64,000 nucleotides of DNA from an uncultured Verrucomicrobiae bacterium (GCA_963702135.1 OY969715.1:1539187-1603186); one strand, 5' to 3'. Shown: positions 103-30,445, numbered from the stretch's first letter. Notes: generated by a model from the letters alone, not told the origin. A program made the numbers and translations.

Positions 103-561
103 ATGAACACAAGAAGACTACTCTGCTCCACGTGCCTGGCACTCCTCTTCACCGTTTGCCTGCCGGTGGGCAAACTCTCCGTTCAGGCCCAGGACGGAAA
201 TCGCTTTAGCCCCACGATTCAAATGGTGATCGACGGTGACACCGATGAGGCCAGGCACCGAACCAGTCAATCGGGCATTATGGATCCGATTGGCCTGTTT
301 CGGAATGAGCAGGTCGGCATCACTCTCATCTTGCCTGGCAACAGAGTTAATTATTCCGTGAGCATCGCTCCTCTCGATGGTGGAGAGGTAGTCGCTTCCG
401 AAAACTTGACCGTCAACGGTGACCGCGAAGCCCATTTCAGCTTCAAAGGCGGCACCACTCCGGGGCTCTATCGAGTTTTGGTGACGATCGCCTCTGAGGA
501 ATACGAGCTCCAGTTCTATGTTTCCCAGACGGAGCCTGATAGCGGCTGCACCCCTCCCTAG
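103..561 (+). CDS. small secreted hypothetical protein (152 aa) just upstream of the Rhs gene
   Basis: ATG ORF with a Sec-like N-terminus MNTRRLLCSTCLALLFTVCLPVGKLSVQAQ. No recognisable catalytic motif. Same strand as rhs and 24 nt upstream of its start. Confidence 0.55.
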   Translation: MNTRRLLCSTCLALLFTVCLPVGKLSVQAQDGNRFSPTIQMVIDGDTDEARHRTSQSGIMDPIGLFRNEQVGITLILPGNRVNYSVSIAPLDGGEVVASENLTVNGDREAHFSFKGGTTPGLYRVLVTIASEEYELQFYVSQTEPDSGCTPP

Positions 562-585: not shown

Positions 586-3500
586 ATGAAAAGATTTCTT
601 AAGACATTCGCGCCCGCTCTCCTGCTCTGTTTCTTTCTTCCCCGAGTTTCCCCGGGCGAAGGAGAGCCCGGAAATAACAATCCAACCGGAGTGACGGGCG
701 AGTACAATGGCAGCGTTACCACCGGCGGATCGTACGATCCTTTCACAGGCAACGCGAAGCGCTTTATCGACGACCTGACGGTGACCGGTAGTGTTGGGGC
801 CTATCCGCTGAAGTGGACGCGGGTGCTGAACACGCGTGGCATCAGTGGGCCGTTCGGAAACGGTGGCGGCTGGAAGCATAGCTATCAGTGGGGGCTTTCC
901 ATTCTGCCACCCTCGCCCCAGTGTGGACCAGAGCTGCCGGCTGCCGTCGTCTCCTATCCCGACGGCAGGAAGATGACGTTTCGCCACGAGGACAACCCCT
1001 CCAGGTTTGAAGACGAGAGCGGGGCCGAGCCCGGCGATAGGCTTATCCAGATCGGAACAAGCACCGACTACGACTTCAAGCTGAAGGACGGTGGCAGGGT
1101 GGAGTTTCGGACCGTCTATGGGCGACCTCATTTCCCCAAATACATAGTGGACCCGTACGGCCAGAGAACGACGCTGGAGTATATTAATAACGGCTCTGGC
1201 GCCCCCACGTTGTGGAAGATTATCGAGCCGGCTGGGCGCTACCTGAAGATCACTTACAAAACATATCTTCCTGAGCCTCCGGCCTATCCGGGTTCCGTAG
1301 AGATCATAGATTATGTCGAGGCGTATGACGGACCCCAAAGCCATCTGATGGAGACCGTGCATTACGATTACCAGCGGGTAAATGCCTCTGCGGAAGTGCA
1401 TGTCAGATTCTACAATCTGATCCGTGCGCGCTATGACGACGGCCAACAGGGTGTCTATGGTTACCTTGGTCCAGCTCGGACCAATCCGGGCGATCCCGGG
1501 ACTCTGGCGCCCGGTAACGTCGAGACTTGTAATGACGTGCGCTTCGCCGGGGCGATGAAGAAAATCGAGTACGAATATGTTCCCGCGACAAATAGTCAGG
1601 TAAATCCCGTCGCTCGTGGCCAGATTCGAGCGGAAAGGAACGCGACGACCCATCAGCTCATATCGAGCGTGGATTATCCGCCAATGGTCCCTGCCAGCTT
1701 TACCCGAACCGAGACGCGCGCGGATGGCGCAACGCGCAAATTCAAATATTTCAATTACAGCTTCGAGCTTGAAAGCTACACGGATTTTGCCTACCCCGGG
1801 CAACCGTACCACACCACTATGTTCAGTTATCCGCCGGGCGCGCCTGGCAACCATTACTACAGAGCGGAGAGAAACGCACGTCCCCAGGGTTACACTACGA
1901 AAACCGAAAAGGAGTTAAACATCGGCGCGATCATGGCGGTAATTCATCCCAATGGCTCCAGGATCCAATACCACTATACCGATGACAACAACCCGTATTA
2001 TGTCGACTTTAAGACCGACGAAAATAACAAAACAACCTATTACGACCGATATTGTGTCGGAGGTAATCCGTGTGACCCCGTGAACGCGAACCGCATTTGG
2101 AAGATTCGATACCCAGATGGCGGTTACGAAACGTTTACCTATAACCAGTTTGGCCAGCCTCTGGAACATCGCATGACCAGTGGGGGCACGGAAAAGTTTA
2201 CCTATAGTCCCCGTGGCTTGAAAGAAACCTATACGCCACCCGGCACTCTGAGTGATCCCAATCCCGCGGATAATCCGACCATGTATTTTTATTACGACGC
2301 CAGCAACAGTCCGGGCCATCGCATCGATCGCCTTTACTACGCGCTCGATCCGCTCCTGCACGCGACTTTCTACGACTACAACCAGCGGGGGCAGGTGACC
2401 CGGTTGACCCATCACGATACCACCTTTACTCAAAGCGACTATTACCCCGATGCCACATTGCACATCAGCACCGATGAGTTGGGGCACCCCACGACCTACA
2501 CGTATGACGAATATGGGCGGATCCTTTCGGTCGAAAATGCCGTCCACAAGGTTGCCGCCACAAGTTATGACCCGGATCCGAGCCCGACGTCGGATCGCTC
2601 ACTGAGCCATACCACCGCCTCGGTTTACCAGACCACGTCGCCGACTGGAAAAACCATTCGGCACCAATACGACGCGAACTTCCGGCTCATCCAGACGACG
2701 GAGGCGCCGGGGACGGGCGATGAAGCCATCACGACTTTTACCTACGATGAAGTCGGCAACCAAATCACCGTCACTCGGCCAAACGGACAACCGTCTGAGC
2801 CGATTCCCGCGCACACCACCACCGGATACGATGATCGCAATCGGCGGGTTAGCCTCAGCGACGAACTGGGGCATACGACCACCTGGGAATACGATGACGC
2901 CGGCAACATGAAGAAGGAGACGCGAGCGGATTTGAAGTTTCGCACGTGGGATGTGTACGACGCCATGAACCGGGCCAAGCACATCACCGGTTTTCTGCAA
3001 GAGCCAACGAGCTACGAGTACGACCTGGCCGGTAATCTGCGGAAGACGATCTTTAACAATTCAGCCTACGAAACGACCTACGATAAGATGAATCGAAAGG
3101 AAAACGCGATCTATCCCCTTGCCGGAAGCGGGAGCGAAGTCTGGCGCTACGACGCCGCTGGAAGCCTGAAATTTTACAAGAACACGGCTGGTCAATACAA
3201 ACACTTCGGTTACGACACGCGGAACCGCCAAACTCACTCCTATTGGAATACTTCGGAAACAAGCAGCAATGTGGACACCTCGGTCGGCGCCGAGACGGTA
3301 ACAGTGTTCGACCCCGCCAATCGCGTAACCAGCGTCGCGAGCGGGCCCACGGTTGTGGCTTATGGTTATGACGACGCGAATCGCAAGATCTGGGAAGACC
3401 AGACCTTGAACGGCAGCACGCGGCGCGTCGAAACATTCCCCGATGATGACGGGAACCGCGCGATCCTGGCGGTAGCGGGAGCTTATGCGCTCACCTACGG

Positions 3501-5358
3501 CTACACCCAGCGGCAGCAGCTCTGGCATATCAACAAAACGGGCGCAGGCCAGTTCTTCGAGTACACCTACGACAAGAATGGCAACCTTAAGAAACGGCAG
3601 AACACATTGCAGGGCGGCGACTCCACCATTTTCACCTATGACCGGTCGGATCGGGTGACGTTGTGCACACAGACGGGGGCGAATGACGCGGCTTTTGCCC
3701 GGAGCAATTACAACGATTACGATCTGGTGGACAATCTGCAATCGGTGACGCGTGAAGAGGATGGAAACAAGGGAGAACGCTTCACCTACGACGATGCGAA
3801 TCAGTTGAAAACGGTTTCGTATAAAGCAGACATCACCCCGCATGGCCCCGAGCAGCCGGGTTCGGTCCCCGGGGAAGGGGGAGTAATCGTCACCGTGCCC
3901 GAGGACTCAGAGCAGAAAGCGCTGGCGGAACTGGTGGCGGACCCGGACCGCGAACCGCTCGCGGAGCGAGGAGGAGGCGGTGGTGGTGAAATCGACGCGA
4001 TGAGCGGCCCGCGCACGGTGACGTACGTGAACGATGCGATCAACCGGCTTAGCATGGAGGACAGCGGGGTGGTGACCAATTATACCCCCAATGGCCTGAA
4101 CCAGTATACGGCGGTAAGCGGCCACACCGCACCGCTTTACGATACGAAATTCAATCTATCGGGCTACGACGGCTGGATCTATATGTATGATGCCGACAAG
4201 CGGCTCGTTTCGGCCAGCAGCGCCGCGGGCGGGGGCCATAGCGCGCAGTTCGTCTATGACGGGCTGGGGCGCTGCGTGAAGCGAACGATCGACGGCGTCT
4301 CAACGGTGTACACGTACGATGAGTGGAAGACGGTCGTGGAGTGGAGCGACACGGGAGCGTTTGTGGCCTGGAATCTTTACGGGCCGGGAGCGGACGAGAT
4401 ACTGGTTCGCTACCAACCGAACACGGGCGGCTACGTCCACTATCACCTCGACGCGATGGGGAATGTGCAGTTCCTGCTCAGCGGCGAGCTGAATCTCGGC
4501 CTTGAGAAGTATACTTACGATGCGTTCGGGCAGCCTCGGGTCACAGGTTGGAACGGCGATGTGCGCACGATCAGCCGTTATGGCAACCGGTTCCTGTTTA
4601 CTGGTCGAGAATATCTCTATACGCTCGGTATTTACGACTATCGGCACCGCGTTTATCATCCCGGGCTGGGGCGTTTTATCCAGACCGACCCTATTGGCTT
4701 CGGCGACGACCCTATGAATTTCTACCGCTATTGCCGTAACGATCCCGTCAATCACACTGACCCAATGGGCACTTATGCGCAGGGGGCCGGGTGGAACAAA
4801 GACAGCTGGGAAAAGTTTCAATCTGCCCAGGAAAACGCGGCCAAAGTTACCGGAGGCGCAGCTGAGCGTATTGCAAGCGCCTTGAAAAATGGTGGCAAAG
4901 AGTTGGAGTCTCTAAAGAGGGATTTTGAGAGAGTCTATGGACCTGGTTCAGCAACGGAGAAAAACCTCCAGGAAGTAGGCACCACCCTTAAGGGTATGGA
5001 GACCGCCCTTCGTGACAATGGCCAGCTAGGATACTATGCAAATGCTGCAAACAAGGCGGAGACTATTGCCCAAGGTCTCTCAAAAGACACCGCGGCCTGG
5101 ACTGTCCCCTCAGATAGGCATTCACTCTATGTTAACACTGATCACGAAAATTTTGGGAAACCTTCGCTTGTGGGCACTGTGATTCACGAGAGCAGCCACA
5201 ATTTGGGATTGATCGATGCCAAGCGTGATAAGGGAGGCGTTAAGGCTTATAGGCACGGGGACCTAACCCAGCGGGCATATTTCAAACAGTTGCCGTTCAA
5301 AGAGCCCGAAAAAGCATTGCGAAATGCTGATACCTTGACTAGCTTTATAGTCCCATGA
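586..5358 (+). CDS. Rhs/YD-repeat polymorphic toxin (1590 aa) with Sec signal peptide and variable C-terminal tip
   Basis: N-terminus MKRFLKTFAPALLLCFFLPRVSPG. Many YD repeats (YDPYGQRTTLEY, YDEYGRILSV, YDEVGNQITV, YDDAGNMKKE, YDLAGNLRKT, YDKNGNLKKR, YDGLGRCVKR, YDAFGQPRV). Rhs core end RFLFTGREYLYTLGIYDYRHRVYHPGLGRFIQTDPIGF...YRYCRNDPVNHTDPMG. Confidence 0.95.
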   Translation: MKRFLKTFAPALLLCFFLPRVSPGEGEPGNNNPTGVTGEYNGSVTTGGSYDPFTGNAKRFIDDLTVTGSVGAYPLKWTRVLNTRGISGPFGNGGGWKHSYQWGLSILPPSPQCGPELPAAVVSYPDGRKMTFRHEDNPSRFEDESGAEPGDRLIQIGTSTDYDFKLKDGGRVEFRTVYGRPHFPKYIVDPYGQRTTLEYINNGSGAPTLWKIIEPAGRYLKITYKTYLPEPPAYPGSVEIIDYVEAYDGPQSHLMETVHYDYQRVNASAEVHVRFYNLIRARYDDGQQGVYGYLGPARTNPGDPGTLAPGNVETCNDVRFAGAMKKIEYEYVPATNSQVNPVARGQIRAERNATTHQLISSVDYPPMVPASFTRTETRADGATRKFKYFNYSFELESYTDFAYPGQPYHTTMFSYPPGAPGNHYYRAERNARPQGYTTKTEKELNIGAIMAVIHPNGSRIQYHYTDDNNPYYVDFKTDENNKTTYYDRYCVGGNPCDPVNANRIWKIRYPDGGYETFTYNQFGQPLEHRMTSGGTEKFTYSPRGLKETYTPPGTLSDPNPADNPTMYFYYDASNSPGHRIDRLYYALDPLLHATFYDYNQRGQVTRLTHHDTTFTQSDYYPDATLHISTDELGHPTTYTYDEYGRILSVENAVHKVAATSYDPDPSPTSDRSLSHTTASVYQTTSPTGKTIRHQYDANFRLIQTTEAPGTGDEAITTFTYDEVGNQITVTRPNGQPSEPIPAHTTTGYDDRNRRVSLSDELGHTTTWEYDDAGNMKKETRADLKFRTWDVYDAMNRAKHITGFLQEPTSYEYDLAGNLRKTIFNNSAYETTYDKMNRKENAIYPLAGSGSEVWRYDAAGSLKFYKNTAGQYKHFGYDTRNRQTHSYWNTSETSSNVDTSVGAETVTVFDPANRVTSVASGPTVVAYGYDDANRKIWEDQTLNGSTRRVETFPDDDGNRAILAVAGAYALTYGYTQRQQLWHINKTGAGQFFEYTYDKNGNLKKRQNTLQGGDSTIFTYDRSDRVTLCTQTGANDAAFARSNYNDYDLVDNLQSVTREEDGNKGERFTYDDANQLKTVSYKADITPHGPEQPGSVPGEGGVIVTVPEDSEQKALAELVADPDREPLAERGGGGGGEIDAMSGPRTVTYVNDAINRLSMEDSGVVTNYTPNGLNQYTAVSGHTAPLYDTKFNLSGYDGWIYMYDADKRLVSASSAAGGGHSAQFVYDGLGRCVKRTIDGVSTVYTYDEWKTVVEWSDTGAFVAWNLYGPGADEILVRYQPNTGGYVHYHLDAMGNVQFLLSGELNLGLEKYTYDAFGQPRVTGWNGDVRTISRYGNRFLFTGREYLYTLGIYDYRHRVYHPGLGRFIQTDPIGFGDDPMNFYRYCRNDPVNHTDPMGTYAQGAGWNKDSWEKFQSAQENAAKVTGGAAERIASALKNGGKELESLKRDFERVYGPGSATEKNLQEVGTTLKGMETALRDNGQLGYYANAANKAETIAQGLSKDTAAWTVPSDRHSLYVNTDHENFGKPSLVGTVIHESSHNLGLIDAKRDKGGVKAYRHGDLTQRAYFKQLPFKEPEKALRNADTLTSFIVP
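4771..5355 (+). other. Rhs C-terminal toxin tip, putative HExxH zinc metallopeptidase (aspzincin/M35-like)
   Basis: 195 aa after the DPMG boundary (4759-4770). HESSH at 5185-5199 is followed by NLGLID. NADTLTSF at 5323-5346 resembles the NADSY-type C-terminal motif of aspzincins (from memory). GC is visibly lower than in the Rhs core. Confidence 0.55.
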
Positions 5359-5801
5359 GGATGCTTTGTCTTCTGTTGGTTGCGGCACTGGCGCTGACGG
5401 CGAACGGTGATAATGCGCCCTCTTACGACCTTCCTGTCGGGAATCCTCCTCCCCGGTACCGGCTCGAAATTAAGGATAATCCGGCCACCGAGCGTTTTGA
5501 ACTAACGCTGCGTTCGCTTGATCATCGTATGATCTGTTTAGCTCGGGCGAGTTGGCCGAATCAAGATGGTCATCTCGATTGGGGCAGCCAGTGGGTAAGA
5601 GTTCAATCTAAGAACAGGTCTTATCCAGCACGCGATTGGAATTTTGGATCCTGTGAGGGCGACGATTGTACTATTCGGGTACCGGCCCAGGGCAAGCTTA
5701 TTGGTTTTATCGGGTATTCCGAGTTTGGCGACCCGAGGGAGATAGCGGCTCTGCCAAAGCGGCGAGTGCACTTCGATCCATTGGTGTTCGTTTGCCCGTA
5801 A
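5355..5801 (+). CDS. candidate cognate immunity protein, secreted/periplasmic (148 aa)
   Basis: Its start overlaps the rhs stop (ATGA). Signal peptide MRMLCLLLVAALALTANG. Four Cys in the mature part. This is the typical position of an Rhs immunity gene. Confidence 0.55.
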   Translation: MRMLCLLLVAALALTANGDNAPSYDLPVGNPPPRYRLEIKDNPATERFELTLRSLDHRMICLARASWPNQDGHLDWGSQWVRVQSKNRSYPARDWNFGSCEGDDCTIRVPAQGKLIGFIGYSEFGDPREIAALPKRRVHFDPLVFVCP

Positions 5802-5810
5802 GGAGGGAAG

Positions 5811-5937
5811 CAGAAGGGGTCAGTCTTAGAATCTCGGCAAATATTCTGGACTTGATGGCTGCGGCCGGCCCAGAATCTAGCAATGCCTCGCAAAGCGCGA
5901 GTCGAGTTCCCCGGAGCGGTTTACCATTTGCTGGATC
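5811..5937 (+). repeat. direct repeat copy A: REP-like 26-nt motif plus the first 18 codons of a RAYT/IS200-like transposase gene
   Basis: About 95% identical to 7626-7753. Contains AAGGGGTCAGTCTTAGAATCTCGGCA (5814-5839). ATG at 5883 encodes MPRKARVEFPGAVYHLLD, after which homology ends. Confidence 0.9.
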
Positions 5938-5991
5938 CAAGGTTGGAGATAGAACTGACGGCATCAATTGAAAGCCAATTGTCATGAAATC

Positions 5992-6017
5992 TGCCGAGAT
6001 TCTAAGACTGACCCCTT
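5992..6017 (-). repeat. inverted copy of the 26-nt REP-like motif
   Basis: TGCCGAGATTCTAAGACTGACCCCTT is the exact reverse complement of 5814-5839. It directly abuts the orphan rhs fragment. Confidence 0.9.
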
Positions 6018-6036
6018 TTGGCTGCTCCTCGGCAGC

Positions 6037-6436
6037 GGACCGCACCTACGTCCACGGGGGGCGAGTTGACGAAATCGTGGCGAGCCACGCCGACGGTGTC
6101 TGGTATAATCACCATTACGATGGGCAGGGTAACTGCATTTTATTGAGCACGGTTAGCGACGGGTTACAGGAGCAGTACGATTACGACGCATTCGGCTTCC
6201 CGTATTTCTACAACGCGAGCGGAGGCCCTCTCTCTGCGCCCCCGCGCACGCGCTTCCTCTTCACGGGCCGGGAGTGGCTGGGCGACCTGCGGATCTACGA
6301 TTACCGGAACCGGCAATATCAGCCGGAGCTAGGCCGCTTCCTCCAGCCTGATCCAAAGGAGTTTTCCGCAGGCGATTACAATCTCTATCGCTATTGCCAC
6401 AATGATGCGGTCAATAAGAGTGACCCGATGGGTTGA
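6037..6436 (+). pseudogene. orphan Rhs core C-terminal fragment (no N-terminus or shell)
   Basis: RTYVHGGRVDEIV...YDYDAFGFPYF...RFLFTGREWLGDLRIYDYRNRQYQPELGRFLQPDP...YRYCHNDAVNKSDPMG aligns with the end of the main Rhs core. The ORF-track start at 5984 is derived from repeat sequence. The frame stops right after DPMG. Confidence 0.85.
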
Positions 6437-6891
6437 TCGATGTTAAAATCGACCCCAAATTGGATAAGTTGAGTGTGCAAGCGTCCCTCAATTCTTTGAA
6501 AGAGGCTGCGAATGGAGCTCCGGCCGGAGTATCACAAGCGATACAGGAGAAGGATGGCAAACTTTCACTGGCTTCTACATATGGAAAAAATGAGATTGTA
6601 GTGGAGAAGGAGATGATCGGTGGCAGACTGCAAAAAGTCACCACGCTTAAGGAATCAGCTAGAAGTGACGAAGGACACAAAGTTGTCGCCGTTGGCCATG
6701 TTCACCAGGATTCCAGCGTCCACGCTGGACCGGGATTCACTAAGACTGATTACGCGACCGCTCAAGGGTCGGAAGGTCATCCGGGCCAGCCAGTATATAA
6801 AGTCAACGAGTCGAACCCTTCAGTAGTAATTCGCCTTACGCCCCAAGTTGACTACCATGACGCGCCGGTGCCGAGGGTGGTCTCGCCTTAG
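6433..6891 (+). CDS. orphan Rhs toxin tip (152 aa), out of frame with the core fragment by 1 nt
   Basis: TTG at 6433 shares one T with the last Gly codon of the core fragment. Restoring one T gives DPMG-LIDVKID, the canonical DPxGL. Contains GHVHQDSSVHAGPGFTKTDY...PVYKV, reminiscent of DUF4329/JAB-like tips (from memory). Low GC. Confidence 0.6.
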   Translation: MIDVKIDPKLDKLSVQASLNSLKEAANGAPAGVSQAIQEKDGKLSLASTYGKNEIVVEKEMIGGRLQKVTTLKESARSDEGHKVVAVGHVHQDSSVHAGPGFTKTDYATAQGSEGHPGQPVYKVNESNPSVVIRLTPQVDYHDAPVPRVVSP

Positions 6892-6929
6892 GAAAACATG
6901 GGGATGTCTATTTTTCGCACGCCTAGATT

Positions 6930-7601
6930 ATGAAAATCATTCCTACCGCGGTAATCGTGGCACTTTTTTGTCAACAAGCCCTATTTGTTACCTTCTGTCG
7001 TGCATCTCCCGTGGACCATCTTGTTCCGTTGGAAACAAGTTATGGGTTGCTCTTGAAATACGAAATACTATCGCGCGAAAAACTGCTGGTTACTTCCGGG
7101 GAGGTCGCCAGGTTTGTCTCTTTGCCTGGGTCGGCGAGCGTTGAAACTTCCGTCTCCGTCTACAAAATGCCTGGCAAGAGAGGGTCGTTACCGGGTGATT
7201 ATTGGGTTACTGTTACGCAAGCAAGCAAGAGCCTGTGGGAAGCAGCGCAGGCGGAGTCTAACCCTAAGGCGATAAGAATCGAACGCTTGGACGCGCCACT
7301 CCCTCAGGTTACGGCGCAAACCGTTCATGACGCATGGATCAGCACGTTGATCAGAGTTAAACCCACTCCAAGGTCAGAGGAAGTTCTCGTAGACAGCACT
7401 CAGGAGATCTTTTCGGCTGCAAAATCTGAAGGTTCCATCATTGAGGGCCAAGCTCCTTCGTCTCCCGGCCCCAAGACTAAAGCGCTAATCGAGGTCGCGT
7501 TTTCATTGATCGAGTATTGCGACAAGCCGCCCGCACTCCGAAGGAAATTAGCGCGTGACATTCGGAGCCGCGCGATGAAACTGATCGAACACGTGGACTG
7601 A
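6930..7601 (+). CDS. candidate immunity protein of the orphan tip, secreted (223 aa)
   Basis: Signal-like N-terminus MKIIPTAVIVALFCQQALFVTFCRASP. Lies directly downstream of the orphan tip. Low GC. No known motif. Confidence 0.5.
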   Translation: MKIIPTAVIVALFCQQALFVTFCRASPVDHLVPLETSYGLLLKYEILSREKLLVTSGEVARFVSLPGSASVETSVSVYKMPGKRGSLPGDYWVTVTQASKSLWEAAQAESNPKAIRIERLDAPLPQVTAQTVHDAWISTLIRVKPTPRSEEVLVDSTQEIFSAAKSEGSIIEGQAPSSPGPKTKALIEVAFSLIEYCDKPPALRRKLARDIRSRAMKLIEHVD

Positions 7602-7625
7602 CGTGAGGGACAAAAAGAAGAAGGT

Positions 7626-7753
7626 CAGAAGGGGTCAGTCTTAGAATCTCGGCAAATTTACTTGACTTGATGGCTGCGGCCGGCCCAGAATCTAGCAATG
7701 CCTCGCAAAGCGCGAGTCGAGTTCCCCCGGAGCGGTTTACCATTTGCTGGATC
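7626..7753 (+). repeat. direct repeat copy B: REP-like motif plus RAYT 5' end
   Basis: Matches 5811-5937. The 26-nt motif lies at 7629-7654. It continues into the RAYT-like coding sequence. Confidence 0.9.
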
Positions 7754-8046
7754 GCGGTGATCGGCAGGAGGCAATTTTCCGCGATGACGCGGATCGGGAG
7801 CAGTTTCTGGCCACGCTCGGGGAGGTGTGCGCGCGCACGGGTTGGCGTGTGCACGCGTTCGTCTTAATGACGAATCATTACCATCTCCAGGTGGAAACAC
7901 CGGAGCCCAACCTTGTGGCAGGCATGCGCTGGTTTCAGACGACCTATACGATCCGGTTCAATCGACGGCACCGCGTCACGGGTCATTTATTCCAAGGGCG
8001 ATACAAATCGGTCACGAGCACGAGCAAGAGCTTGGCAGGGAATTAG
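7698..8046 (+). pseudogene. IS200/RAYT-type (HUH Y1) transposase, frameshifted and 3'-truncated
   Basis: MPRKARVEFP is followed by an extra C in a C-run (about 7726-7730) compared with copy A. The shifted frame reads LDRGDRQEAIFRDDADREQFLATLGEVCARTGWRVHAFVLMTNHYHLQVETPEPNLVAGMRWFQTTYTIRFNRRHRVTGHLFQGRYKSV (HUH = HYH). Homology ends before the catalytic Tyr region. Confidence 0.85.
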
Positions 8047-8714
8047 GGAGCGGCGCGGTCGTAGACTTCCACCAGGCCCACGCCAGTGCCGCCGTTTGAT
8101 CCCGCAAGCAGCACTGTGTAAAGACCGGGCGGCTGCATCGTGGCTACGGCAGACTCGAGTGGGTTGCTAGGCGCAAGACCCCCCGTGGTCAGTTCGGCGG
8201 TTTGCATCGGATTATCCTGCCAATCGTTATTCGCGACCAGGAGCGCTCCGTCGCCATTGCGCAGTTCCAGAGTCGGATCCGTCAGCGCATCCGGCACGCC
8301 CGTCGCCGAAAGGCTGGGTCCGAGGCCGCGCACGACGATACTGTCCTGCCCGCTCGCCCCGCCGAGAATGAAGCCCGCGATGACAATATCGTTACTGGTT
8401 CCGACAAAAGCGCGCGTGCTAATATTCGCCAACTTTCCTTGGGCCGGGTCCAGATCGTAGATTTCCACCAAGGCGACTCCTGAGGTGTCGCCACTGCCCT
8501 TTACGACCGCGGTGTACGCGCCCGGAGCGAGGTTGGCGTAGATGGCCGATTCCAGATTATTCGCGGGAGCAATGCCAGTGCCCAGAATCGCGGTTTCCTG
8601 GGATGAGTTATCGCGCCAGTTATCGTTCGTGATCGTGCTGAATCCATCGGGGAAATGCAGTTCCATGACCGGGTCAGCCAACACATTGGGAACGCCGGGG
8701 CTCAACGAAGGCAT
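8043..8714 (-). pseudogene. 5'-truncated fragment of a secreted repeat-domain protein (two ANISTR...NDxW beta-sandwich-type units)
   Basis: Two tandem units (GVPNVLADPVMELHF...NDNWRDN...VALVEIYD and GVPDALTDPTLELRN...NNDWQDN...VGLVEVYD). The ORF begins mid-unit (PSLSPGVPN). Its stop overlaps the stop of the RAYT remnant. Confidence 0.55.
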
Positions 8715-8986: not shown

Positions 8987-9056
8987 ATTGTCCAACGTCC
9001 ACCCAAAGCTCGAACGGATGCTTGCTTTGCCTGACCTGAAGAGTTGAAATGCGGAC

Positions 9057-21249: not shown

Positions 21250-24200
21250 GTGAATCCAAACGCAGCGATGGTGTGTCCGCACGACACCCTCTTGGTCGTG
21301 CTCTCCATTCTCATGCCACACAGATATTTTGGTCTTTGGACACTCGGTCTCGGCTGGCTGAATGTGACCGTCGATGCGTTAATCCTCCTCGCCTACTTCT
21401 CGATTCCCATCGCTCTCGTCTATTTCGTGCGCAATCGGAGAGACATCACTCTTGCATGGATGTTCGTTTGCCTCGGGGTCTTCGTCCTGGCCAGCGGCAT
21501 CACGTTTTTGATGGAGATCTGGAATGCGCGCCACTCACATTATTGGCTCTCCAGTGCTATCAAAGCCGTCGCGGTGCTGGCGGCCGTGCCGACCGCCATC
21601 CTGCTGGCCCGGCTGATTCCGGCGCTCCGCGCCAGCGAGGAACGGTTCCGGAGTTATTTCGAACTCGGGCTGATCGGCGCGGCAATCACCTCACCGACCA
21701 AAGGGTGGGTTGAGATCAATGACGAGATCTGCCGCATCCTGGGATACGAACGAAGCGAGTTGTTGCGCATGACTTGGGCGGAATTAACTCATCCGGACGA
21801 TCTCGCTGCCGATGTCGCCTATTTTAACCGGGTCTTGGCTGGGGAGATCGAAAGTTACGTCATGGATAAGCGGTTTATCCGCAAGGATGGCCGGGTCATT
21901 GACGCCACCATTTCGGTGAGATGCCTGCGCCGGGCGGATGGTTCGGTCGATTACTTCGTAGCGCTCGTGCAAGACATCACCGAGCGAAAGCTGGCCGAAA
22001 GAGCGCTCCGAGAAAGCGAGGAACGCATGCGCGCAGTCCTGGAATCGGCGTTGGATTGCATCATTACCATGGACCATCACGGCAGGGTGGTTGAATTCAA
22101 TCCAGCCGCGGAAAAGACCTTCGGCTACAAACGCGACGCAGCCATTGGGCAGTTATTGGCCGACCTGATCATCCCACCTGCGCTCCGCGAGCGTCACCGG
22201 CGCGGTTTGGAGCGTTACCTTTCCACGGGCGAAGGTTCGATGCTCGGCCGGCGCATCGAACTGACGGGAATGCGCAGTGATCATTCGGAGTTTCCCGTGG
22301 AACTCGCCATTACCCGGGTCGGTTCGCAAGAACCTCCCATGTTTACAGGTTTCATCCGGGATATCACCGAGCGGAAGCAAGCGGAGGAGGCGCTGGCCGC
22401 GCAGGTCCTTCGCTATAAGACCCTGATGGAGACTTCGACGGATTCGATCTACGTCCTGGACGAAGAGGGTGATCTGCAAGAGGCGAATGCGGCCTTTCTT
22501 CGTCGGCGCGGTTACACCGCGGCAGAGGTAGAAGGTTTGAACGTCGCGGATTGGGACGCGCGGTATGGTCGCGAACAAATACAGGAAAGAATGCGCAAAC
22601 TGGCTGGGAGCAGCGCCGTGTTCGAAACGCGGCACCGTTGCAAGGATGGCTCCATCTTCGATGTGGAAGTTTGCGCGACGAGCGTCCGGATCGGAGGAAA
22701 ACCATTATTCTTTGTCGTGACGCGCGACATTACCGAACGCAAGCAAGCGGAGGATCGGCTGCGGCGGAGCGAGGAAAAATTCAAGGCGCTTTTCGGAATC
22801 GCACCGGTCGGTATCTCGGTCTTGGATCGACAACACAACATAGCAGACGCAAATCCCGCCCTCGAACGAATCGTGCGCCTGTCGAGAGAAGAGTTGTTAG
22901 GCGGAGCTTATCGCCGGCGCAGCTATCTCAACGCGGATGGCACGCCCAAGCCGTCTGATGAGCTTCCGAGCGAGCGTGCCGTCACCAAGGGCCAGACCCT
23001 CAACGATTATGAAGTAGGTATTGTCACAGAAAACGGTGAAGTCATCTGGACCCAAGTGAGCGTCGCTCCACTCGCCTTGCCGGAAGCGAGCGCGGTCGTG
23101 ATCACACAGGACATTACTGAACGCAAGCGGGCGGAGCAGGCTCTGCGTGAGAGCGAAGAACGTTTTCGCGAGCTCGCCGAAAACATTAACGAAGTATTTT
23201 GGACGTGGACCGCCACACCAGGAAATGCGCAGTGCCTTTATGTCAGCTCTGCCTACGCGACGATCTGGGGACGTAGTTGCGAGAGCCTCTATTCGTCGCC
23301 TCAATCGTGGAAGGAAGCGCTGCATCCGCAGGACAAAGAATGGGTCCTGCAAGAAATTGCGCGCTTGGACCTCGAAAAAATCAGCGACTGGACCTATCGC
23401 ATCGTCCGCCCCGATCAATCGATCCGGTGGATCCGGGACCGGATTTTCCCTGTGCGCGATGTGTTCGGCGCAGTCGTTCGATTTGCTGGGATTGCCGAAG
23501 ACATCACTGAGCGCAGGATCGCCGAAGAGGAACTGAAAAAAGAGAAAGAGATCCTAGCGAAGGTATTTGACAATATCCCAGTGATGATCGGTTTCGTTGG
23601 CGCCGACGGCGTCAAGCGCGTCAATCCAGAATGGGAGCGAACCATGGGATGGACGCTGAAGGAATTACAGGACCAAAGTGTGGACATATTTGTGGACGCG
23701 TATCCTGACCTGTCGTACCGCCAGGAGGTTTTGGACTTCGTCGCCGCAGCAACTGGGGAGTGGGCCGATCTCAAAATAAAGGTGAGGGATGGCCGGGTGA
23801 TTGACGCGACTTGTGCTGTCACCCACCTTTCGGACGGGACGAAAGTTGCGATCGCCCAGGACATTACTGAACGCAAGCAGGCGGAGCAGGCTCTGCGTGA
23901 AAGCGAAGAACGTTTTCGCGAGCTCGCCGAAAACATCAACGAAGTATTTTGGGTTTGGACCGCCACGCCAGGAAACGCGCGGTGCCTTTACGTCAGCCCG
24001 GCCTACGCAACGATCTGGGGACATAGTTGCGAGAGCCTCTATTCGTCGCCGCAATCATGGAGGGAAGCGCTGCATCCGCAGGATGCGGAAAGGGTCATGG
24101 AAGAAGGCGCACACATGGACTTCGAAAACATCGCTGATTGGACCTATCGCATTGTGCGTCCCGATCAATCGGTCCGGTGGATCCGCGACCGGATGTTTCC

Positions 24201-24972
24201 AGTGCGCGATGGGAGTGGCGCGGTCGTCCGCTTTGCCGGAATTGCCCACGACATTACCGAAAGCAAAGAAGCGGAACAAACAGTCCGTAAAACAAACCGG
24301 CAACTGCGAAATCTCTCGCGGCGACGGATTCAAGAACAGGAAGATGAGCGGCGACGACTGTCGAGAGAGTTGCACGACCAGATCGGACAGTCCCTCACTG
24401 CCGCAAAGATCAATGTGGAGGTAATCCGAACAACGGAAAACCCCGCCTGCCTTGGGCGAATCGAGGAAACGATCGCGATTCTCGATCAGTTGCTCGGCCA
24501 GGTGCGGCAGATTTCATTGGATCTCCGTCCGCCGATGCTGGACGACCTGGGCTTGGTTCCAGCACTTCGTTCATTTATCGACGAACAAGGACGCCGCGCC
24601 TCGATCGCGGTTCGTTTTTCCGCGGAGCAAATCCCGGTAAAACTCGACCCGGAAATTCAGATAACTTGTTTTCGCATCGCGCAGGAAGCGATCACAAACG
24701 CGGTGCGCCACGCCAAGGCTACGCAACTCGTTATCGCTCTTCGGTGCACGCCAGGGAGAGAATTGCGGCTTCTGGCCCACGACGACGGCATCGGTTTCGA
24801 CGCTCGGGCGAAGCAGGTCCAAGCGGTTGATCTTGGGCTAACCGGAATAAGGGAACGCGCCGCTCTGGTCGGTGGGCGAGCAAAGATCATTTCGTCGCCG
24901 CGCAAGGGAACGACAATTGATGTATCTCTGCCGTTGACGTTTCGAGGCGAACGCCAGACCCGTCGCATGTAA
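21250..24972 (+). CDS. membrane multi-PAS sensor histidine kinase, HisKA_3 (NarL-partner) type, with ethylene-receptor-like TM domain
   Basis: TM region LILLAYFSIPIALVYFV...LGVFVLASGITFLMEIW. About 7 PAS units. HisKA_3 box ERRRLSRELHDQIGQSLTAAKI. HATPase ITNAVRHAKA, DDGIGF, GLTGIRERAALVGG. GTG start; an alternative ATG lies at 21268. Confidence 0.9.
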   Translation: MNPNAAMVCPHDTLLVVLSILMPHRYFGLWTLGLGWLNVTVDALILLAYFSIPIALVYFVRNRRDITLAWMFVCLGVFVLASGITFLMEIWNARHSHYWLSSAIKAVAVLAAVPTAILLARLIPALRASEERFRSYFELGLIGAAITSPTKGWVEINDEICRILGYERSELLRMTWAELTHPDDLAADVAYFNRVLAGEIESYVMDKRFIRKDGRVIDATISVRCLRRADGSVDYFVALVQDITERKLAERALRESEERMRAVLESALDCIITMDHHGRVVEFNPAAEKTFGYKRDAAIGQLLADLIIPPALRERHRRGLERYLSTGEGSMLGRRIELTGMRSDHSEFPVELAITRVGSQEPPMFTGFIRDITERKQAEEALAAQVLRYKTLMETSTDSIYVLDEEGDLQEANAAFLRRRGYTAAEVEGLNVADWDARYGREQIQERMRKLAGSSAVFETRHRCKDGSIFDVEVCATSVRIGGKPLFFVVTRDITERKQAEDRLRRSEEKFKALFGIAPVGISVLDRQHNIADANPALERIVRLSREELLGGAYRRRSYLNADGTPKPSDELPSERAVTKGQTLNDYEVGIVTENGEVIWTQVSVAPLALPEASAVVITQDITERKRAEQALRESEERFRELAENINEVFWTWTATPGNAQCLYVSSAYATIWGRSCESLYSSPQSWKEALHPQDKEWVLQEIARLDLEKISDWTYRIVRPDQSIRWIRDRIFPVRDVFGAVVRFAGIAEDITERRIAEEELKKEKEILAKVFDNIPVMIGFVGADGVKRVNPEWERTMGWTLKELQDQSVDIFVDAYPDLSYRQEVLDFVAAATGEWADLKIKVRDGRVIDATCAVTHLSDGTKVAIAQDITERKQAEQALRESEERFRELAENINEVFWVWTATPGNARCLYVSPAYATIWGHSCESLYSSPQSWREALHPQDAERVMEEGAHMDFENIADWTYRIVRPDQSVRWIRDRMFPVRDGSGAVVRFAGIAHDITESKEAEQTVRKTNRQLRNLSRRRIQEQEDERRRLSRELHDQIGQSLTAAKINVEVIRTTENPACLGRIEETIAILDQLLGQVRQISLDLRPPMLDDLGLVPALRSFIDEQGRRASIAVRFSAEQIPVKLDPEIQITCFRIAQEAITNAVRHAKATQLVIALRCTPGRELRLLAHDDGIGFDARAKQVQAVDLGLTGIRERAALVGGRAKIISSPRKGTTIDVSLPLTFRGERQTRRM
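23110..23515 (+). repeat. PAS-module repeat copy 1 (RESEERFRELAENINEVFW type)
   Basis: Roughly 90% or more nucleotide identity by eye to 23860-24262. Clearly related to 28927-29325 and 29316-29715. Confidence 0.8.
23860..24262 (+). repeat. PAS-module repeat copy 2
   Basis: Same module as 23110-23515, within the same gene. Confidence 0.8.
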
Positions 24973-26680: not shown

Positions 26681-26920
26681 GCGAACCGCTCTCTCTCGCA
26701 GTGAATCCAATACATTGTTCGTTTTAGTGCTTGTCATTTGCAGTCCGGACAAGGTTATATCGGAGCGGTAGCGGTGATCCCCCCGGTGACGAGGGATGAG
26801 CCGAAACATCGTAATAGTCGACGAGGCGCCAGCGCGAGAATGGCGCGACTGGCTGGCAAGAGGCTCTCTCGTGGGGGGAGTAACACCTGGGCGATGGCCG
26901 ACCTGCTTGGGCGAGATCGG

Positions 26921-29900
26921 ATGAAAGCCCTGATCCCTCCCGATGAAGCAGACCGGTTGAAGGCGTTGGCTGGGTACAAAATCCTTGATACGGAGGCCGA
27001 GCGGAGCTTCGACGATATTACCCTCCTTGCTTCGCACGTTTGCCGGACCCCGATCGCCTTGATCAGCCTGGTGGACCAGAACCGGCAGTGGTTCAAATCC
27101 AATATCGGCATGGTTGAGAGCGAAACGGGTCGCGACATCGCATTCTGCGCGCACGGGATCCTCGAACCAGATTGGTTCGAAGTGCAAGATGTGCTGGCCG
27201 ACGAACGGTTCGCCACGAATCCTTTGGTCACGGGCAATCCCAGGATTCGCTTTTACGCCGGCTCGCCGCTCGTGACACCCGAGGGCCATGCGCTGGGGAT
27301 GTTGTGCGTGATCGATCAGGTTCCGCGTCAGCTAAGTCCGTCCGAAAAGGCAGCGTTGAAGGCCTTGGGCCGTCAGGTGGTCGCGCAATTGGAGCTGCGA
27401 CGCCATATCGCCGAGCGTAAACAATCGGAAGCCGCGCTCCGCCAAAGCGAGGAGCGCTTCCGGAGCTATTTCGAGCTCGGATTGATGGGCGTGGCGATCA
27501 CTTCACCGGCCAAGGGCTACGTTGAGGTCAACGACGAGCTCTGCCGCATCCTGGGATACGAACGAGATGAGTTGCTGCGAAAGACCTGGGCGGAACTGAC
27601 TCATCCCGACGATCTGGCCGCCGATGTCGCTTGTTTCAACCGGGTCCTTGCCGGGGAGATGGATAGTTATTCGAGGAACAAGCGGTTTATTCGCAAGGAC
27701 GGCAAGTTCATTGACACCACCATTTCCGTAAAGTGCCTCCGCCGTGGGGACAGGTCGGTCGATTATTTCGTGGCGCTCTTGCAAGACATCACCGAGCGCA
27801 AGCACGCCGAAGAACGATTGCGCCAGGGCGAGGAACGCATGCGCGCCATCCTGGAGTCGGCTTTGGACTGTATCGTGACCATCGATCATCGGGGGAGAGT
27901 TGTAGAATTCAATCCAGCCGCGGAAAAGACATTCGGCTACAAACGCGCCGCAACGATCGGCCATTTTATGGACGATCTGATCATCCCGCCATCGCACCGT
28001 GAACGGCATCGGCGCGGGTTAGCGCATTACCTCTCGACGGGCGAAGCCGCTGTGCTCGGGCAGCGCATGGAACTGACCGGGATGCGGAGCGATCATTCGG
28101 AGTTTCCCGTGGAACTCACCATCACCCGGATCGGTTCGCATGAACCTCCGATGTTTACAGGTTTCATCCGAGATATCACCGAGCGGAAGCAGGCGGAGGA
28201 GGCCCTGGCCGAACAAGGCCTTCGGTACAAGACGCTGATGGAAACATCCGCGGATTCCATATACGTCCTGAACGAACGAGGCGATTTACAGGAGGCAAAT
28301 GCCGCGTTTTTGCGCCGGCGCGGGTACACCGCAGCGGAGGCGAAGGGCCTAAACGTTGCAGATTGGGACGCGCAGTGGACAGGCGAACAACTGCAAGAAC
28401 GACTCCAAGAAAAACTACGCAAGGTCGACGGCGACACCATGTTTGAAACGCGGCATCGGTGCAAAAATGGCTCGGTGTTCGATGTCGAAGTATCCGCGAC
28501 GCGCGTTCGGATCGGTGGACAACAATTGTTCTTTTGCGTGACACGCGACATCACCGAGCGCAAGCTGGCAGAGGAAGCTCTCCACGCCGCCCACGAGCGG
28601 CTTGGTGCGATCATCCAGAAGGCTCCACTCGCCATTGTCGCGATTGACTCAGCGGCGATGGTTCAGATGTGGAATCCGGCGGCTGAGCGGTTGTTTGGCT
28701 GGACAGAAGCCGAACTAGTTGGCCGGCCTATCCTTCCGATCATTCCCCGGGAAGACCGGCGACAATTCAAGAAACTCATCGCTGGCGAGGTCCTGGAGGA
28801 GCTCCGCGACGGACTGGAATTGCGCCGCCGGCGCAAGGACGGTTCGCTGGTGGACGTCAGCTTTTGGACAGCGCCCCTGCGCAGCACCCGAAACGAGATT
28901 GTTGGCACCATTGGGATGTTCGCGGACATCACCGAGCGCAAATTGGCTGAAGATGCATTGCGCACAAGTGAGGGGCGTTTTCGGCAGATCGCCGAAAACA
29001 TTAACGAAGTATTTTGGGTTTGGACGGCGACGCCCGGGGAGCCGCGTTTGCTTTATGTCAGTCCGGCTTATGCGACCATTTGGGGGCGTAGTTGCGAGAG
29101 CCTTCATTCTTCGCCCCAGTCATGGAAGGAAGCGCTCCATCCCCAAGACAAAGAAGCGGTCCTGGCGAAAATCGCGGACTTGGATCTTGAGAAAAGCAGC
29201 GACCTGACCTATCGAATCGTCCGCCCTGATCAATCGATCCGGTGGATCCGCGACCGGATTTTTCCGGTGCGCGACGAAGACGGCGTGGTTTTTCGATTTG
29301 CCGGCATTGCTGAAGACATCACGACGCGCAAGCAAGCAGAGCAGGCTCTGCGTGAAAGCGAAGAACGGTTTCGCGAGCTTGCCGAAAACATTAACGAAGT
29401 ATTTTGGATCTGGACCGCTCCGCCGGGAAAGGCAGAGTGCCTTTACGTCAGCCCAGCCTACGCGACGATTTGGGGACGCAGTTGCGAGAGCCTCTATTCG
29501 TCGCCTCAATCATGGATGGAAGCGTTGCATCCGCAGGACCAGGGAAGGGTTCAGGAAGAGGGTGAGCGCATGGACTTCGAAAAAATCAGCGATTGGACCT
29601 ATCGCATTGTCCGCCCCGATCAATCGGTCCGGTGGATCCGGGACCGGATTTTTCCGGTGCGCGATGGGCGCGGCGCGGTCGTTCGATTTGCCGGCATCGC
29701 GGAAGACGTGACCCAGAGCAAGGAAGCGGAGGAACAAGTCCGCAGGGCAAATCGGCAAATGCGAAATCTTTCGCGGCGGCGAATTCAAGAGCAGGAAGAT
29801 GAGCGGCGACGACTCTCGAGAGAACTGCACGACCAGATCGGGCAGTCCCTCACCGCCGCAAAGATTAATGTGGAGGTGCTTCGAACAACGGAGAACCCCG

Positions 29901-30445
29901 CGCTCATTACGCGAATCGACGAAACAATCGCGATTCTCGATCAGTTGCTCGGCCAGGTAAGGCAGATTTCACTGGATCTCCGCCCGCCCATGCTGGACGA
30001 CCTGGGCTTGGTTCCAGCACTCCGTTCATTCGTCGACGAACAGGGACGCCGCGCTTCGATCGCGGTGCGTTTCTCCGCCGAGCGCATCCCGGAGAAACTC
30101 GACCCGGAGATCCAGATAACTTGTTTCCGCATCGCGCAGGAAGCGATCACCAACGCGGTGCGCCACGCCAAAGCCACCCAAATCGAGGTCGTTCTTCGGT
30201 GCTCGCGCGGGAAAATATTGCGGCTCTTGAATCGAGACAATGGCATCGGCTTCGATCCCCAACCGAAGAAAGCACAAGCGGTCGATCTTGGTCTGATCGG
30301 AATAAGAGAACGCGCCGCTTTGGTCGGCGGGCGGGTAAGGATTACTTCGTCGCCCGGCAAAGGGACGACGATTGACGTGGCTCTCCCGTTAACGTTTCGG
30401 CCCGAACACCGTGGCCGTCAGATTGAAGCAGTCGCACCGGCATAG
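26921..30445 (+). CDS. cytoplasmic GAF / multi-PAS sensor histidine kinase (HisKA_3 type), paralog of 21250..24972
   Basis: Likely start MKALIPPDEADRLKALAGYKILD (the ORF is open from 26738). GAF region FCAHGIL...RFYAGSPLVTPEGHALGMLCVID. PAS array and kinase core collinear with the 21250 gene. Confidence 0.9.
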   Translation: MKALIPPDEADRLKALAGYKILDTEAERSFDDITLLASHVCRTPIALISLVDQNRQWFKSNIGMVESETGRDIAFCAHGILEPDWFEVQDVLADERFATNPLVTGNPRIRFYAGSPLVTPEGHALGMLCVIDQVPRQLSPSEKAALKALGRQVVAQLELRRHIAERKQSEAALRQSEERFRSYFELGLMGVAITSPAKGYVEVNDELCRILGYERDELLRKTWAELTHPDDLAADVACFNRVLAGEMDSYSRNKRFIRKDGKFIDTTISVKCLRRGDRSVDYFVALLQDITERKHAEERLRQGEERMRAILESALDCIVTIDHRGRVVEFNPAAEKTFGYKRAATIGHFMDDLIIPPSHRERHRRGLAHYLSTGEAAVLGQRMELTGMRSDHSEFPVELTITRIGSHEPPMFTGFIRDITERKQAEEALAEQGLRYKTLMETSADSIYVLNERGDLQEANAAFLRRRGYTAAEAKGLNVADWDAQWTGEQLQERLQEKLRKVDGDTMFETRHRCKNGSVFDVEVSATRVRIGGQQLFFCVTRDITERKLAEEALHAAHERLGAIIQKAPLAIVAIDSAAMVQMWNPAAERLFGWTEAELVGRPILPIIPREDRRQFKKLIAGEVLEELRDGLELRRRRKDGSLVDVSFWTAPLRSTRNEIVGTIGMFADITERKLAEDALRTSEGRFRQIAENINEVFWVWTATPGEPRLLYVSPAYATIWGRSCESLHSSPQSWKEALHPQDKEAVLAKIADLDLEKSSDLTYRIVRPDQSIRWIRDRIFPVRDEDGVVFRFAGIAEDITTRKQAEQALRESEERFRELAENINEVFWIWTAPPGKAECLYVSPAYATIWGRSCESLYSSPQSWMEALHPQDQGRVQEEGERMDFEKISDWTYRIVRPDQSVRWIRDRIFPVRDGRGAVVRFAGIAEDVTQSKEAEEQVRRANRQMRNLSRRRIQEQEDERRRLSRELHDQIGQSLTAAKINVEVLRTTENPALITRIDETIAILDQLLGQVRQISLDLRPPMLDDLGLVPALRSFVDEQGRRASIAVRFSAERIPEKLDPEIQITCFRIAQEAITNAVRHAKATQIEVVLRCSRGKILRLLNRDNGIGFDPQPKKAQAVDLGLIGIRERAALVGGRVRITSSPGKGTTIDVALPLTFRPEHRGRQIEAVAPA
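28927..29325 (+). repeat. PAS-module repeat copy 3
   Basis: SEGRFRQIAENINEVFWVWTATPGEPRLLYVSPAYATIWGRSCESL..., same module as in the 21250 gene. Confidence 0.75.
29316..29715 (+). repeat. PAS-module repeat copy 4
   Basis: RESEERFRELAENINEVFWIWTAPPGKAECLYVSPAYATIWGRSCESLYSSPQSW..., near-identical at the nucleotide level to 23860-24262. Confidence 0.8.

Follow-up and report, generated by a model that had tools for sequence, protein, structure and literature searches.

The stretch of DNA analysed here, 64,000 nucleotides from an uncultured Verrucomicrobiae bacterium (GCA_963702135.1 OY969715.1:1539187-1603186) and called the window at its full length, carries close to its beginning a gene for a 1590-residue Rhs polymorphic toxin (586..5358, on the forward strand like the other features of the locus unless stated otherwise). 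Profile searches, structure prediction and comparison of related loci indicate that this toxin is probably exported by the general secretory (Sec) pathway, ends in a protease tip of the aspzincin fold, is paired with an exported immunity protein and acts on the envelope of neighbouring cells without a type VI secretion system (T6SS).

The original prediction, made from the sequence alone, had described an HExxH, aspzincin-like tip on a Sec-signal Rhs protein with no T6SS context, and its positions for the open reading frame (ORF), for the motif closing the core and for the 195-residue tip all proved correct. The protein is matched by RHS_repeat (PF05593, E 1.7e-34) in eight stretches and by YD_repeat, and these repeats are followed by the Rhs-associated core with its autoproteolytic aspartyl-protease region (4516..4770), recognised by the NCBIfam model TIGR03696 (Rhs_assc_core, E 7.3e-20, residues 1311-1395). 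The core terminates at 4770 with ...YRYCRNDPVNHTDPMG, the last four residues of which read DPMG (4759-4770); RHS/YD repeats joined to a core ending in DPxG identify the product as an Rhs protein. By analogy with the Rhs/TcC family, the core aspartyl protease would cut its own chain at DPMG and thereby free the tip, T1396-P1590, which starts at 4771 (4771..5355, up to 5358 with the stop codon) and constitutes the predicted metallopeptidase domain.

Profile and fold evidence for an aspzincin tip

Compared with the curated Pfam models, the tip has Aspzincin_M35 (PF14521) as its top match (E 4.5e-6, 27.6 bits, profile positions 17-140 of 142), and the same model is also matched by all five of its close homologues. 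At E values up to 1, no other curated Pfam model, Tox-MPTase models included, matched the window tip, a comparison outside which Tox-MPTase1 falls for want of a model in the libraries used; Peptidase_M91 matches one close relative alone (E 0.0084). NCBIfam returned no model for the tip, for the immunity protein or for the orphan genes that follow it. In the Protein Data Bank (PDB), the sequence closest to a profile of the close homologues was that of the M35 enzyme GfMEP, the peptidyl-Lys metalloendopeptidase of Grifola frondosa and archetype of the aspzincins (1g12, a weak match at E 0.064).

An AlphaFold2 model of the tip, computed from a 43-sequence alignment, reached a predicted local distance difference test (pLDDT) score of 97.2 and a pTM of 0.91. 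When this model was compared with the PDB by Foldseek, the only significant matches were AsaP1 of Aeromonas salmonicida (2x3a, E 2.7e-4, TMq 0.57) and GfMEP (1ge6, E 5.5e-4, TMt 0.56), both of them M35 enzymes, the third-ranked match having an E value of 0.25; against viral structures nothing significant was found. The predicted model thus has the M35 fold as judged by Foldseek, and profile and model together support the earlier proposal of an aspzincin-like metallopeptidase; the tip would be a divergent zinc endopeptidase of this fold, related to M35.

Predicted active site of the tip

Tip residues are numbered from T1396 of the Rhs protein as residue 1, and conservation was counted over 86 full-length domains of the tip family that are 28-78% identical to the window tip. 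The HESSH motif (5185..5199, residues 139-143) lies within a predicted helix (133-143) and is aligned by HMMER with H117-E-S-S-H121 of GfMEP; its predicted zinc ligands H139 and H143 are each found in 100% of the domains and its predicted catalytic base E140 in 99%. G-L-I-D (5206..5217) stands three residues after the second histidine, with G146 conserved in 84% of the domains and D149 as the predicted third zinc ligand, equivalent by alignment to the aspartate of GTKD130 in GfMEP. It is followed by A159-Y160 (5245..5250; 76% and 94%), the counterpart of A132-Y133 within the GTxDxxYG motif, and close to the C-terminus by NADTLTSF (5323..5346), whose N185 (95%) and D187 (99%) bracket an N-A-D that HMMER places on N152-A153-D154. 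D187 would accordingly be the equivalent of Asp154 as a second-shell carboxylate, a correspondence seen at the level of sequence. All of these motifs were found where they had been reported, the comparison of NADTLTSF with the NADSY-like element of M35 enzymes holds for its NAD part, and conservation across the 86 members places the motifs beyond chance.

In GfMEP, zinc is bound by His117, His121 and Asp130, and Asp154 hydrogen-bonds His117 (PMC3268031), a role preferred here to that of an S1' specificity residue. Counterparts of all four residues appear to be kept in the aligned tip, in which H139, H143 and D149 would bind the metal. Position 149 is Asp in 59 and His in 24 of the 86 domains, one or the other in 97% of them, and such an alternation, confined to two metal-binding residue types, would be expected of a zinc ligand. 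In some members of the family with a short loop, HExxHxxGxx runs straight into an uninterrupted D-Y-A-Y or D-x-A-Y, a string present in GfMEP as D130-Y-A-Y133, and when these members were used as a bridge in a MAFFT alignment, G146-L-I-D149 fell on G127-T-K-D130 and A159-Y160 on A132-Y133. The mapping of G-L-I-D onto the GTxD half of the M35 motif was therefore upheld by the bridged alignment. The full GTxDxxYG layout that had been proposed needs qualification, however, since in the window subfamily its YG half is displaced by an 8-residue insert (AKRDKGGVK) between D149 and A159-Y160, and since His takes the ligand position in the 24 domains mentioned.

Predicted export of the Rhs protein and its upstream partner

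The Rhs protein begins with a Sec-type signal peptide (MKRFLKTFAPALLLCFFLPRVSPG, 586..657), recognised heuristically by a charged n-region and a 10-residue hydrophobic window with a mean Kyte-Doolittle (KD) value of 2.5, a pattern that is mostly absent from cytoplasmic control proteins of the window. Alignment shows behind it a conserved, clade-specific segment, GNNNPTGVTGEYNGS..YDPFTGNAKR, on which DUF6531 gives a weak match (E 0.001-0.004) that stays under the cut-off of that model. A search of the GTDB species representatives with the conserved N-terminal 400 residues recovered 67 loci, nearly all from metagenome-assembled genomes of Chthoniobacterales or other Verrucomicrobiota, including Candidatus Udaeobacter, and often several per genome. 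The same signal-peptide layout was found in 62 of the 62 readable N-termini of this clade, and many of them have AFA↓Q-type sites directly before the conserved GNDNPTG...YDPxTGNAKR segment. The classical signal peptide of the original prediction is thus confirmed by heuristics and by its recurrence among relatives, and the Rhs protein would, on this sequence pattern, be exported by the Sec pathway.

An alternative is that the Rhs protein is a T6SS effector served by a T6SS encoded elsewhere in the genome, its N-terminus being prePAAR-like or a transmembrane helix. The majority of Rhs toxins studied in diderm bacteria are indeed T6SS cargo, T6SS-delivered Aspzincin_M35 effectors exist, and the search for T6SS genes extended over 64 kb of about 4.2 Mb. 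Nevertheless, no PAAR, prePAAR or VgrG-interacting domain was detected with Pfam and NCBIfam in the window Rhs, whether the whole protein or its N-terminal 330 residues were searched, and PAAR, VgrG, LXG, WXG and SpvB/TcdB domains were absent both from it and from eight other full-length proteins of the tip family, most of which start with signal-like sequences. DUF4150 and other T6SS families were likewise missing from these nine proteins and from the scanned window ORFs; the scan of 30 long ORFs for T6SS structural and chaperone Pfam families (VgrG, Hcp, Eag, TssA-M) was negative, and these ORFs encode mostly two-component signalling proteins, besides a TonB-dependent receptor and glycosyltransferases. 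The earlier statements that the Rhs protein does not start with a PAAR or VgrG-interacting domain and that the window has no T6SS gene were in this way upheld for the Rhs protein and the 30 ORFs. Also opposed to a T6SS effector are the uniform n/h/c layout of the 62 N-termini with many AxA-type sites before a conserved mature N-terminus, the predicted export of both the partner and the immunity protein, and the absence of Verrucomicrobia from the phyletic list of T6SS in Table 1 of PMC3482391. Delivery by a T6SS is consequently regarded as unlikely.

The partner is encoded directly upstream (103..561) and is a secreted protein of 152 residues with a signal peptide (N-terminal hydrophobic window, KD 2.83) and a single immunoglobulin (Ig)-like beta-sandwich. 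Its position is conserved: a homologue lies directly 5' of the Rhs gene in most of the 67 Chthoniobacterales loci (matches in 56), its end lying no more than about 100 nt from where the Rhs gene starts. In the loci L003-L069 it is found at about 9300-9990 with a length of ~150-200 residues, and it precedes the Rhs gene also in L001, L002 and L070, three further loci that share the window tip type. At least 151 proteins belong to the family, all annotated as 'hypothetical' and without a Pfam domain. Its AlphaFold2 model has a pLDDT of 79, exceeding 90 over residues about 60-140, and retrieved with Foldseek only generic Ig domains of filamin, intimin and S-layer proteins. By analogy with MafA, the Ig-like protein may possibly serve as an anchor or adaptor.

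Candidate immunity protein and probable site of action

The stop codon of the Rhs gene overlaps by 4 nt (ATGA) with the start of a gene (5355..5801) for a 148-residue protein that has a signal peptide and four cysteines (C61, C100, C105, C147), and for which neither Pfam nor NCBIfam holds a family. A homologue follows the same tip type in four of four loci, namely the window, L001 and L002 (76-80% identity) and L070 (E 6.6e-85 to the immunity profile). Eleven database homologues, down to 55% identity, keep the hydrophobic leader and the four cysteines, as does the window protein (12/12), and from this leader and these invariant cysteines the product is argued to be exported and disulfide-bonded. 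The 5355..5801 product would therefore be the cognate immunity protein that inhibits the tip, as its linkage to the tip type suggests. Genes with hydrophobic or lipobox-like leaders, unrelated to this one, also follow two other tips of the superfamily, the His-variant on the main Rhs of L001 and a short-loop NADSY variant that is an orphan in L005.

In L001, the main Rhs gene (4322-9364) carries this His-variant tip (HESGHSAGLYHGEVDGVTAY...NPDH), and the gene with a hydrophobic leader behind it (9361-9981) is unrelated to the window immunity gene. Two aspzincin-like tips, one with Asp and the other with His at the ligand position, are thus combined in this locus, and each is paired with a separate exported immunity candidate.

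From these leaders, the most likely site of action of the protease is extracytoplasmic, its targets being proteins in the periplasm or envelope of neighbouring bacteria. A different target was also weighed, in which the tip would be aimed at eukaryotes such as protists, fungi or invertebrates, the downstream gene merely shielding the periplasm of the producer. This possibility draws on the PDB entry of AsaP1, the closest structure, which names it an extracellular toxic zinc metalloendopeptidase, on fungal M35 enzymes, described as virulence factors, on the killing of yeast by the effector T6EC12, and on the resemblance of Sec-exported Rhs shells to Tc toxins. A tight coupling of toxin and immunity, orphan modules of a tip with its immunity gene, and Rhs paralogues with different tips are, on the other hand, hallmarks of conflict among related bacteria (PMC3482391), and no SpvB, TcdB or TcA-like domain was found in the window Rhs and the eight other full-length members. 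A eukaryotic target is, like a T6SS route, judged to be unlikely.

The tip family and its distinction from metzincins

A word-indexed homologue search with the tip found four relatives, whereas an exhaustive profile search over 1.84 billion representatives brought the number to 167 at E<=1e-3, 104 of them at E<=1e-10. In every member the domain is C-terminal, and it follows the Rhs DPxG directly in 101 of the 123 members with a readable junction; the source annotation of these proteins reads only 'RHS repeat-associated'. A profile scan with five close tips over 185,579 species representatives gave no confirmed relative, which leaves metagenomes and the source genome as the only places where the close subfamily is known to occur. 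As far as alignments can tell, and with Tox-MPTase1 left out of the comparison, the tip belongs to an uncatalogued, Rhs-specific branch of aspzincins with a split motif and an Asp/His alternation at the ligand position.

A competing identity for the tip is that of a metzincin-type protease, with the motif HExxHxxGxxH/D found in snapalysin, reprolysins and matrixins. HESSHNLGLID fits HExxHxxGxxD, HExxHxxGxxH occurs in 24 of 86 relatives, and ADAM8 came first when the PDB was searched with a broader profile (E 0.063). Marginal matches of 43 broader family members are divided among Aspzincin_M35 (10/43), Reprolysin_3 (10/43) and others, Reprolysin_5, Peptidase_M10 and M7 included, each of the metzincin models being matched by 1-10 members and none of all these matches lying above threshold. 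The metzincin matches arise because the broader members contain the literal motif HExxHxxGxx[DH], and they span about 35 residues around it only, whereas the PF14521 match extends over 124 of the 142 positions of the profile and takes in the NAD helix at the C-terminus. Moreover, no metzincin gave a significant Foldseek match (serralysin PrtC, E about 4.6, probability 0.11), the 86 sequences have no conserved Met after the motif that could form the Met-turn by which metzincins are recognised, and the short-loop relatives carry the D-Y-A-Y signature of aspzincins. A metzincin tip is consequently considered improbable. That the tip is a zincin-like module which has lost catalysis or cleaves no protein, serving for instance in binding or as a scaffold, is very improbable, for although its Pfam score is below threshold and GTxDxxYG is disrupted, the catalytic residues are strongly constrained over the 86 sequences and a dedicated immunity protein is retained.

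Comparison with known proteases and toxins

With the M35 aspzincins GfMEP and AsaP1 the tip shares the predicted fold, HExxH, the C-terminal N-A-D and, on the bridged alignment, G-x-x-D with the following A-Y, and it is, like GfMEP (167 residues against 195), a small domain. Identity to M35 enzymes is 16-21%. Cleavage with Lys at P1' marks the peptidyl-Lys subgroup of M35, and the review PMC11985622 was found to say nothing about residues of the pocket. The tip differs from GfMEP by the 8-residue insert in GTxDxxYG and by a spacer between HExxH and G that is 3 residues shorter, and its family differs from M35 by the His that replaces Asp in 24 of 86 members. Furthermore, M35 enzymes are secreted with a propeptide, whereas the tip would be a cleaved Rhs cargo with a separate protein inhibitor.

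A full-text literature search for Rhs together with aspzincin yielded only the preprint on T6EC12 of Methylocaldum szegediense, an Aspzincin_M35 cargo effector of the T6SS that is toxic in periplasm, cytoplasm and yeast, its toxicity depending on HExxH and on a downstream Asp, D312, 7 residues past the second His (bioRxiv 10.64898/2026.09.28.754971). Compared by description, T6EC12 resembles the tip in its PF14521-type HExxH with a downstream Asp, and its immunity protein is predicted to lie over the cleft; an Aspzincin_M35-domain T6SS effector of Wang et al. 2023 is a homologue and is grouped with it. T6EC12 is, however, a free cargo predicted to sit in Hcp, is encoded near T6SS genes and has a two-domain scaffold, whereas the window tip is an Rhs tip on a protein predicted to be exported by Sec, with an unrelated exported immunity protein.

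Zhang et al. 2012 listed RHS-repeat toxins under 'T2SS/Sec-dependent' export, T2SS being the type II secretion system, and named as zincin tips Tox-MPTase1-5, HopH1/NleD M91 and ALF-MPTase (PMC3482391). Like the window tip, these HExxH metallopeptidase domains form the C-terminal end of RHS-repeat toxins, and several are assigned to the T2SS/Sec class. The closest architectural analogue is the MafA/MafB system of Neisseria, which combines a signal peptide and a lineage-specific N-terminal domain with an ever-present small, exported upstream partner (PMC3482391), and to which a polymorphic C-terminus, several paralogous loci and orphan cassettes are common as well. The window toxin differs from MafB by its full Rhs shell, and the window partner differs from MafA in being soluble-looking and Ig-like, without a clear lipobox and unrelated in sequence. 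WapA of Bacillus is a Sec-exported Rhs/YD toxin. The host of the window is, in contrast to that of WapA, a diderm verrucomicrobium with an outer membrane to cross.

The novelty implied by the original prediction stands in one respect, as the Rhs-specific aspzincin branch was uncatalogued, and is reduced in another, as Sec-exported Rhs proteins and zincin Rhs tips had already been predicted in 2012 (PMC3482391) and a toxic Aspzincin_M35 effector of the T6SS has been described (bioRxiv 10.64898/2026.09.28.754971). The branch is carried by a Sec-Rhs/Ig-partner cassette specific to Verrucomicrobia and comes with an exported putative inhibitor.

Cassette exchange, orphan modules and repeats

The tip is GC-poorer than the Rhs core (GC 0.503 against 0.566), and the difference is larger at third codon positions (GC3 0.515 against 0.685), where the immunity gene has a value of 0.53; only 0.95% of the 588-nt windows across the 64 kb are as GC-poor as the tip. 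The higher AT content reported for the tip and the downstream gene is thereby established, and the reading of both as a swapped-in cassette is upheld. On the same 4.18-Mb contig, a second Rhs protein (P0284) shares 86% identity as far as DPxG, immediately beyond which the similarity ends and a different tip follows, and the Ig-like gene has two more paralogues (P0201 and P0219, 90% and 66% identical). With a second Rhs gene and two extra Ig-like paralogues, the genome holds at least three such cassettes. The window tip type is the main tip in the window and in L070, and is found in L001 and L002 as an orphan module behind a full-length Rhs gene with another tip. Exchange of tips between similar Rhs proteins, orphan modules and a co-inherited small downstream gene, which mark polymorphic toxins, are thus all present.

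The window has an orphan module of its own behind the immunity gene. It consists of an Rhs core fragment ending in ...NKSDPMG, identified as an ORF (5984..6436), of a 152-residue orphan tip without a Pfam family, GC-poor like the main tip (6433..6891), and of a candidate immunity gene for this tip, whose 223-residue product has a hydrophobic leader and no Pfam family (6930..7601). Between the orphan core and the orphan tip the reading frame is shifted by one base: the junction reads ggttgatc where ggtttgatc would give DPMG-LIDVK, so that the core stops after DPMG and the tip ORF lies in the -1 frame. The orphan may have become a pseudogene, the sequence may contain an error at this point, or the cassette may be silent until it is recombined.

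Right after the stop codon of each of the two immunity genes there is a copy of a ~127-nt direct repeat (5811-6020 and 7626-7753; 97-100% identical), in which an IS200-like Y1 transposase gene begins (MPRKARVEFPGAVYHLLD). The first copy belongs to a 210-bp piece (5811..6020, no strand assigned) that resembles a miniature inverted-repeat transposable element, with 32-nt inverted repeats at its ends; it contains the first ~18 codons of the transposase gene, and the ORF of the orphan Rhs fragment starts with the right arm of the piece. The second copy runs into a frameshifted IS200-like Y1 transposase gene (7626..8046; PF01797, E 4.3e-9), one extra C putting it out of frame with the Y1_Tnp ORF (7744..8046). 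The repeats may be cassette boundaries or recombination sites. In L001, Y1_Tnp genes, together with Bac_DnaA_C, flank the Rhs array on both sides.

Elsewhere in the window, two-component signalling genes are unusually crowded at 19365-59623, where a dozen or more hybrid histidine kinases and response regulators are encoded; these include two paralogous multi-PAS kinases of ~1240 residues (21250..24972 and 26738..30445) and a PAS-GAF hybrid kinase of 1565 residues. On the reverse strand, at 62446-63966, a 506-residue ORF with four matches to collagen triple-helix repeats (PF01391, E 1.9e-39) adjoins a gene for a 671-residue tetratricopeptide repeat (TPR) protein.

Proposed mechanism and significance

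Several observations weigh against a Sec-exported aspzincin toxin and lower the confidence placed in it. The PF14521 score of the tip does not reach the gathering cut-off of 30, this model is matched at E<0.1 by no more than 10 of the 43 broader family members, sequence matches to the PDB, at E about 0.06, are not significant alone, and the TM-scores between the tip model and M35 structures (0.48-0.57) are moderate. The role of D149 as a ligand and the geometry of the site derive from alignment and not from model coordinates, and HMMER by itself favours another register, GGVKAY on GGTKDY of GfMEP, with Ala159 at the ligand position; that register was rejected in view of the D or H at position 149 in 97% of the domains and of the D-x-A-Y of short-loop members. 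The signal peptides were judged by heuristics and not by a trained predictor, and a T6SS could be encoded in the part of the roughly 4.2-Mb genome beyond the 64 kb scanned. Finally, an exported immunity protein is alone no proof of the target compartment: the producer needs periplasmic protection anyway, because the Rhs precursor is itself exported.

With these reservations, the locus is best explained as a polymorphic toxin locus of a soil bacterium of the Chthoniobacterales (Verrucomicrobiota), in which the 1590-residue Rhs protein would leave the cytoplasm via Sec and form a YD-repeat shell, and the core aspartyl protease would cut off the 195-residue tip at DPMG. In the active site of the tip, zinc would be held by H139, H143 and D149, with E140 as catalytic base and with Y160 and the second-shell D187 completing the site. 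The exported, disulfide-bonded immunity protein would neutralise the tip, and neighbours lacking it would suffer proteolysis in their envelope or periplasm. Tip and immunity gene would move as one GC-poor cassette, also as an orphan module behind other Rhs genes. Delivery would proceed without a PAAR/VgrG-type T6SS interface and with two outer membranes to cross, the upstream Ig-like protein possibly acting as a partner.

A more far-reaching proposal, which is offered tentatively and with rather more doubt than belief, is that Chthoniobacterales possess a dedicated, T6SS-independent Rhs pathway, a diderm counterpart of WapA and MafB, in which the Sec-exported shell, the clade-specific N-terminal domain and the Ig-like partner would cross the outer membrane and bring protease tips to the periplasm of neighbours, these tips representing a new aspzincin branch with alternating Asp and His ligands.

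Few classes of toxins have, to our knowledge, been studied as little as the protease-type Rhs tips, and we know of no substrate for any aspzincin-type bacterial toxin. The tip offers a compact, confidently modelled protease of 195 residues with a small, putatively exported inhibitor and with E140, D149, Y160 and D187 as targets for mutation, and the natural alternation of Asp and His at its ligand position would allow the relation between aspzincin and metzincin-like sites to be tested. Since genomes of an abundant soil clade of Verrucomicrobia, to which relatives of Candidatus Udaeobacter belong, each have several Rhs genes with Sec signals, mostly with an Ig-like gene upstream, the locus makes it testable how a Sec-exported Rhs protein may leave a diderm cell and arrive in the periplasm of a neighbour. 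It is, in this respect, a good experimental entry point more than a conceptual surprise.

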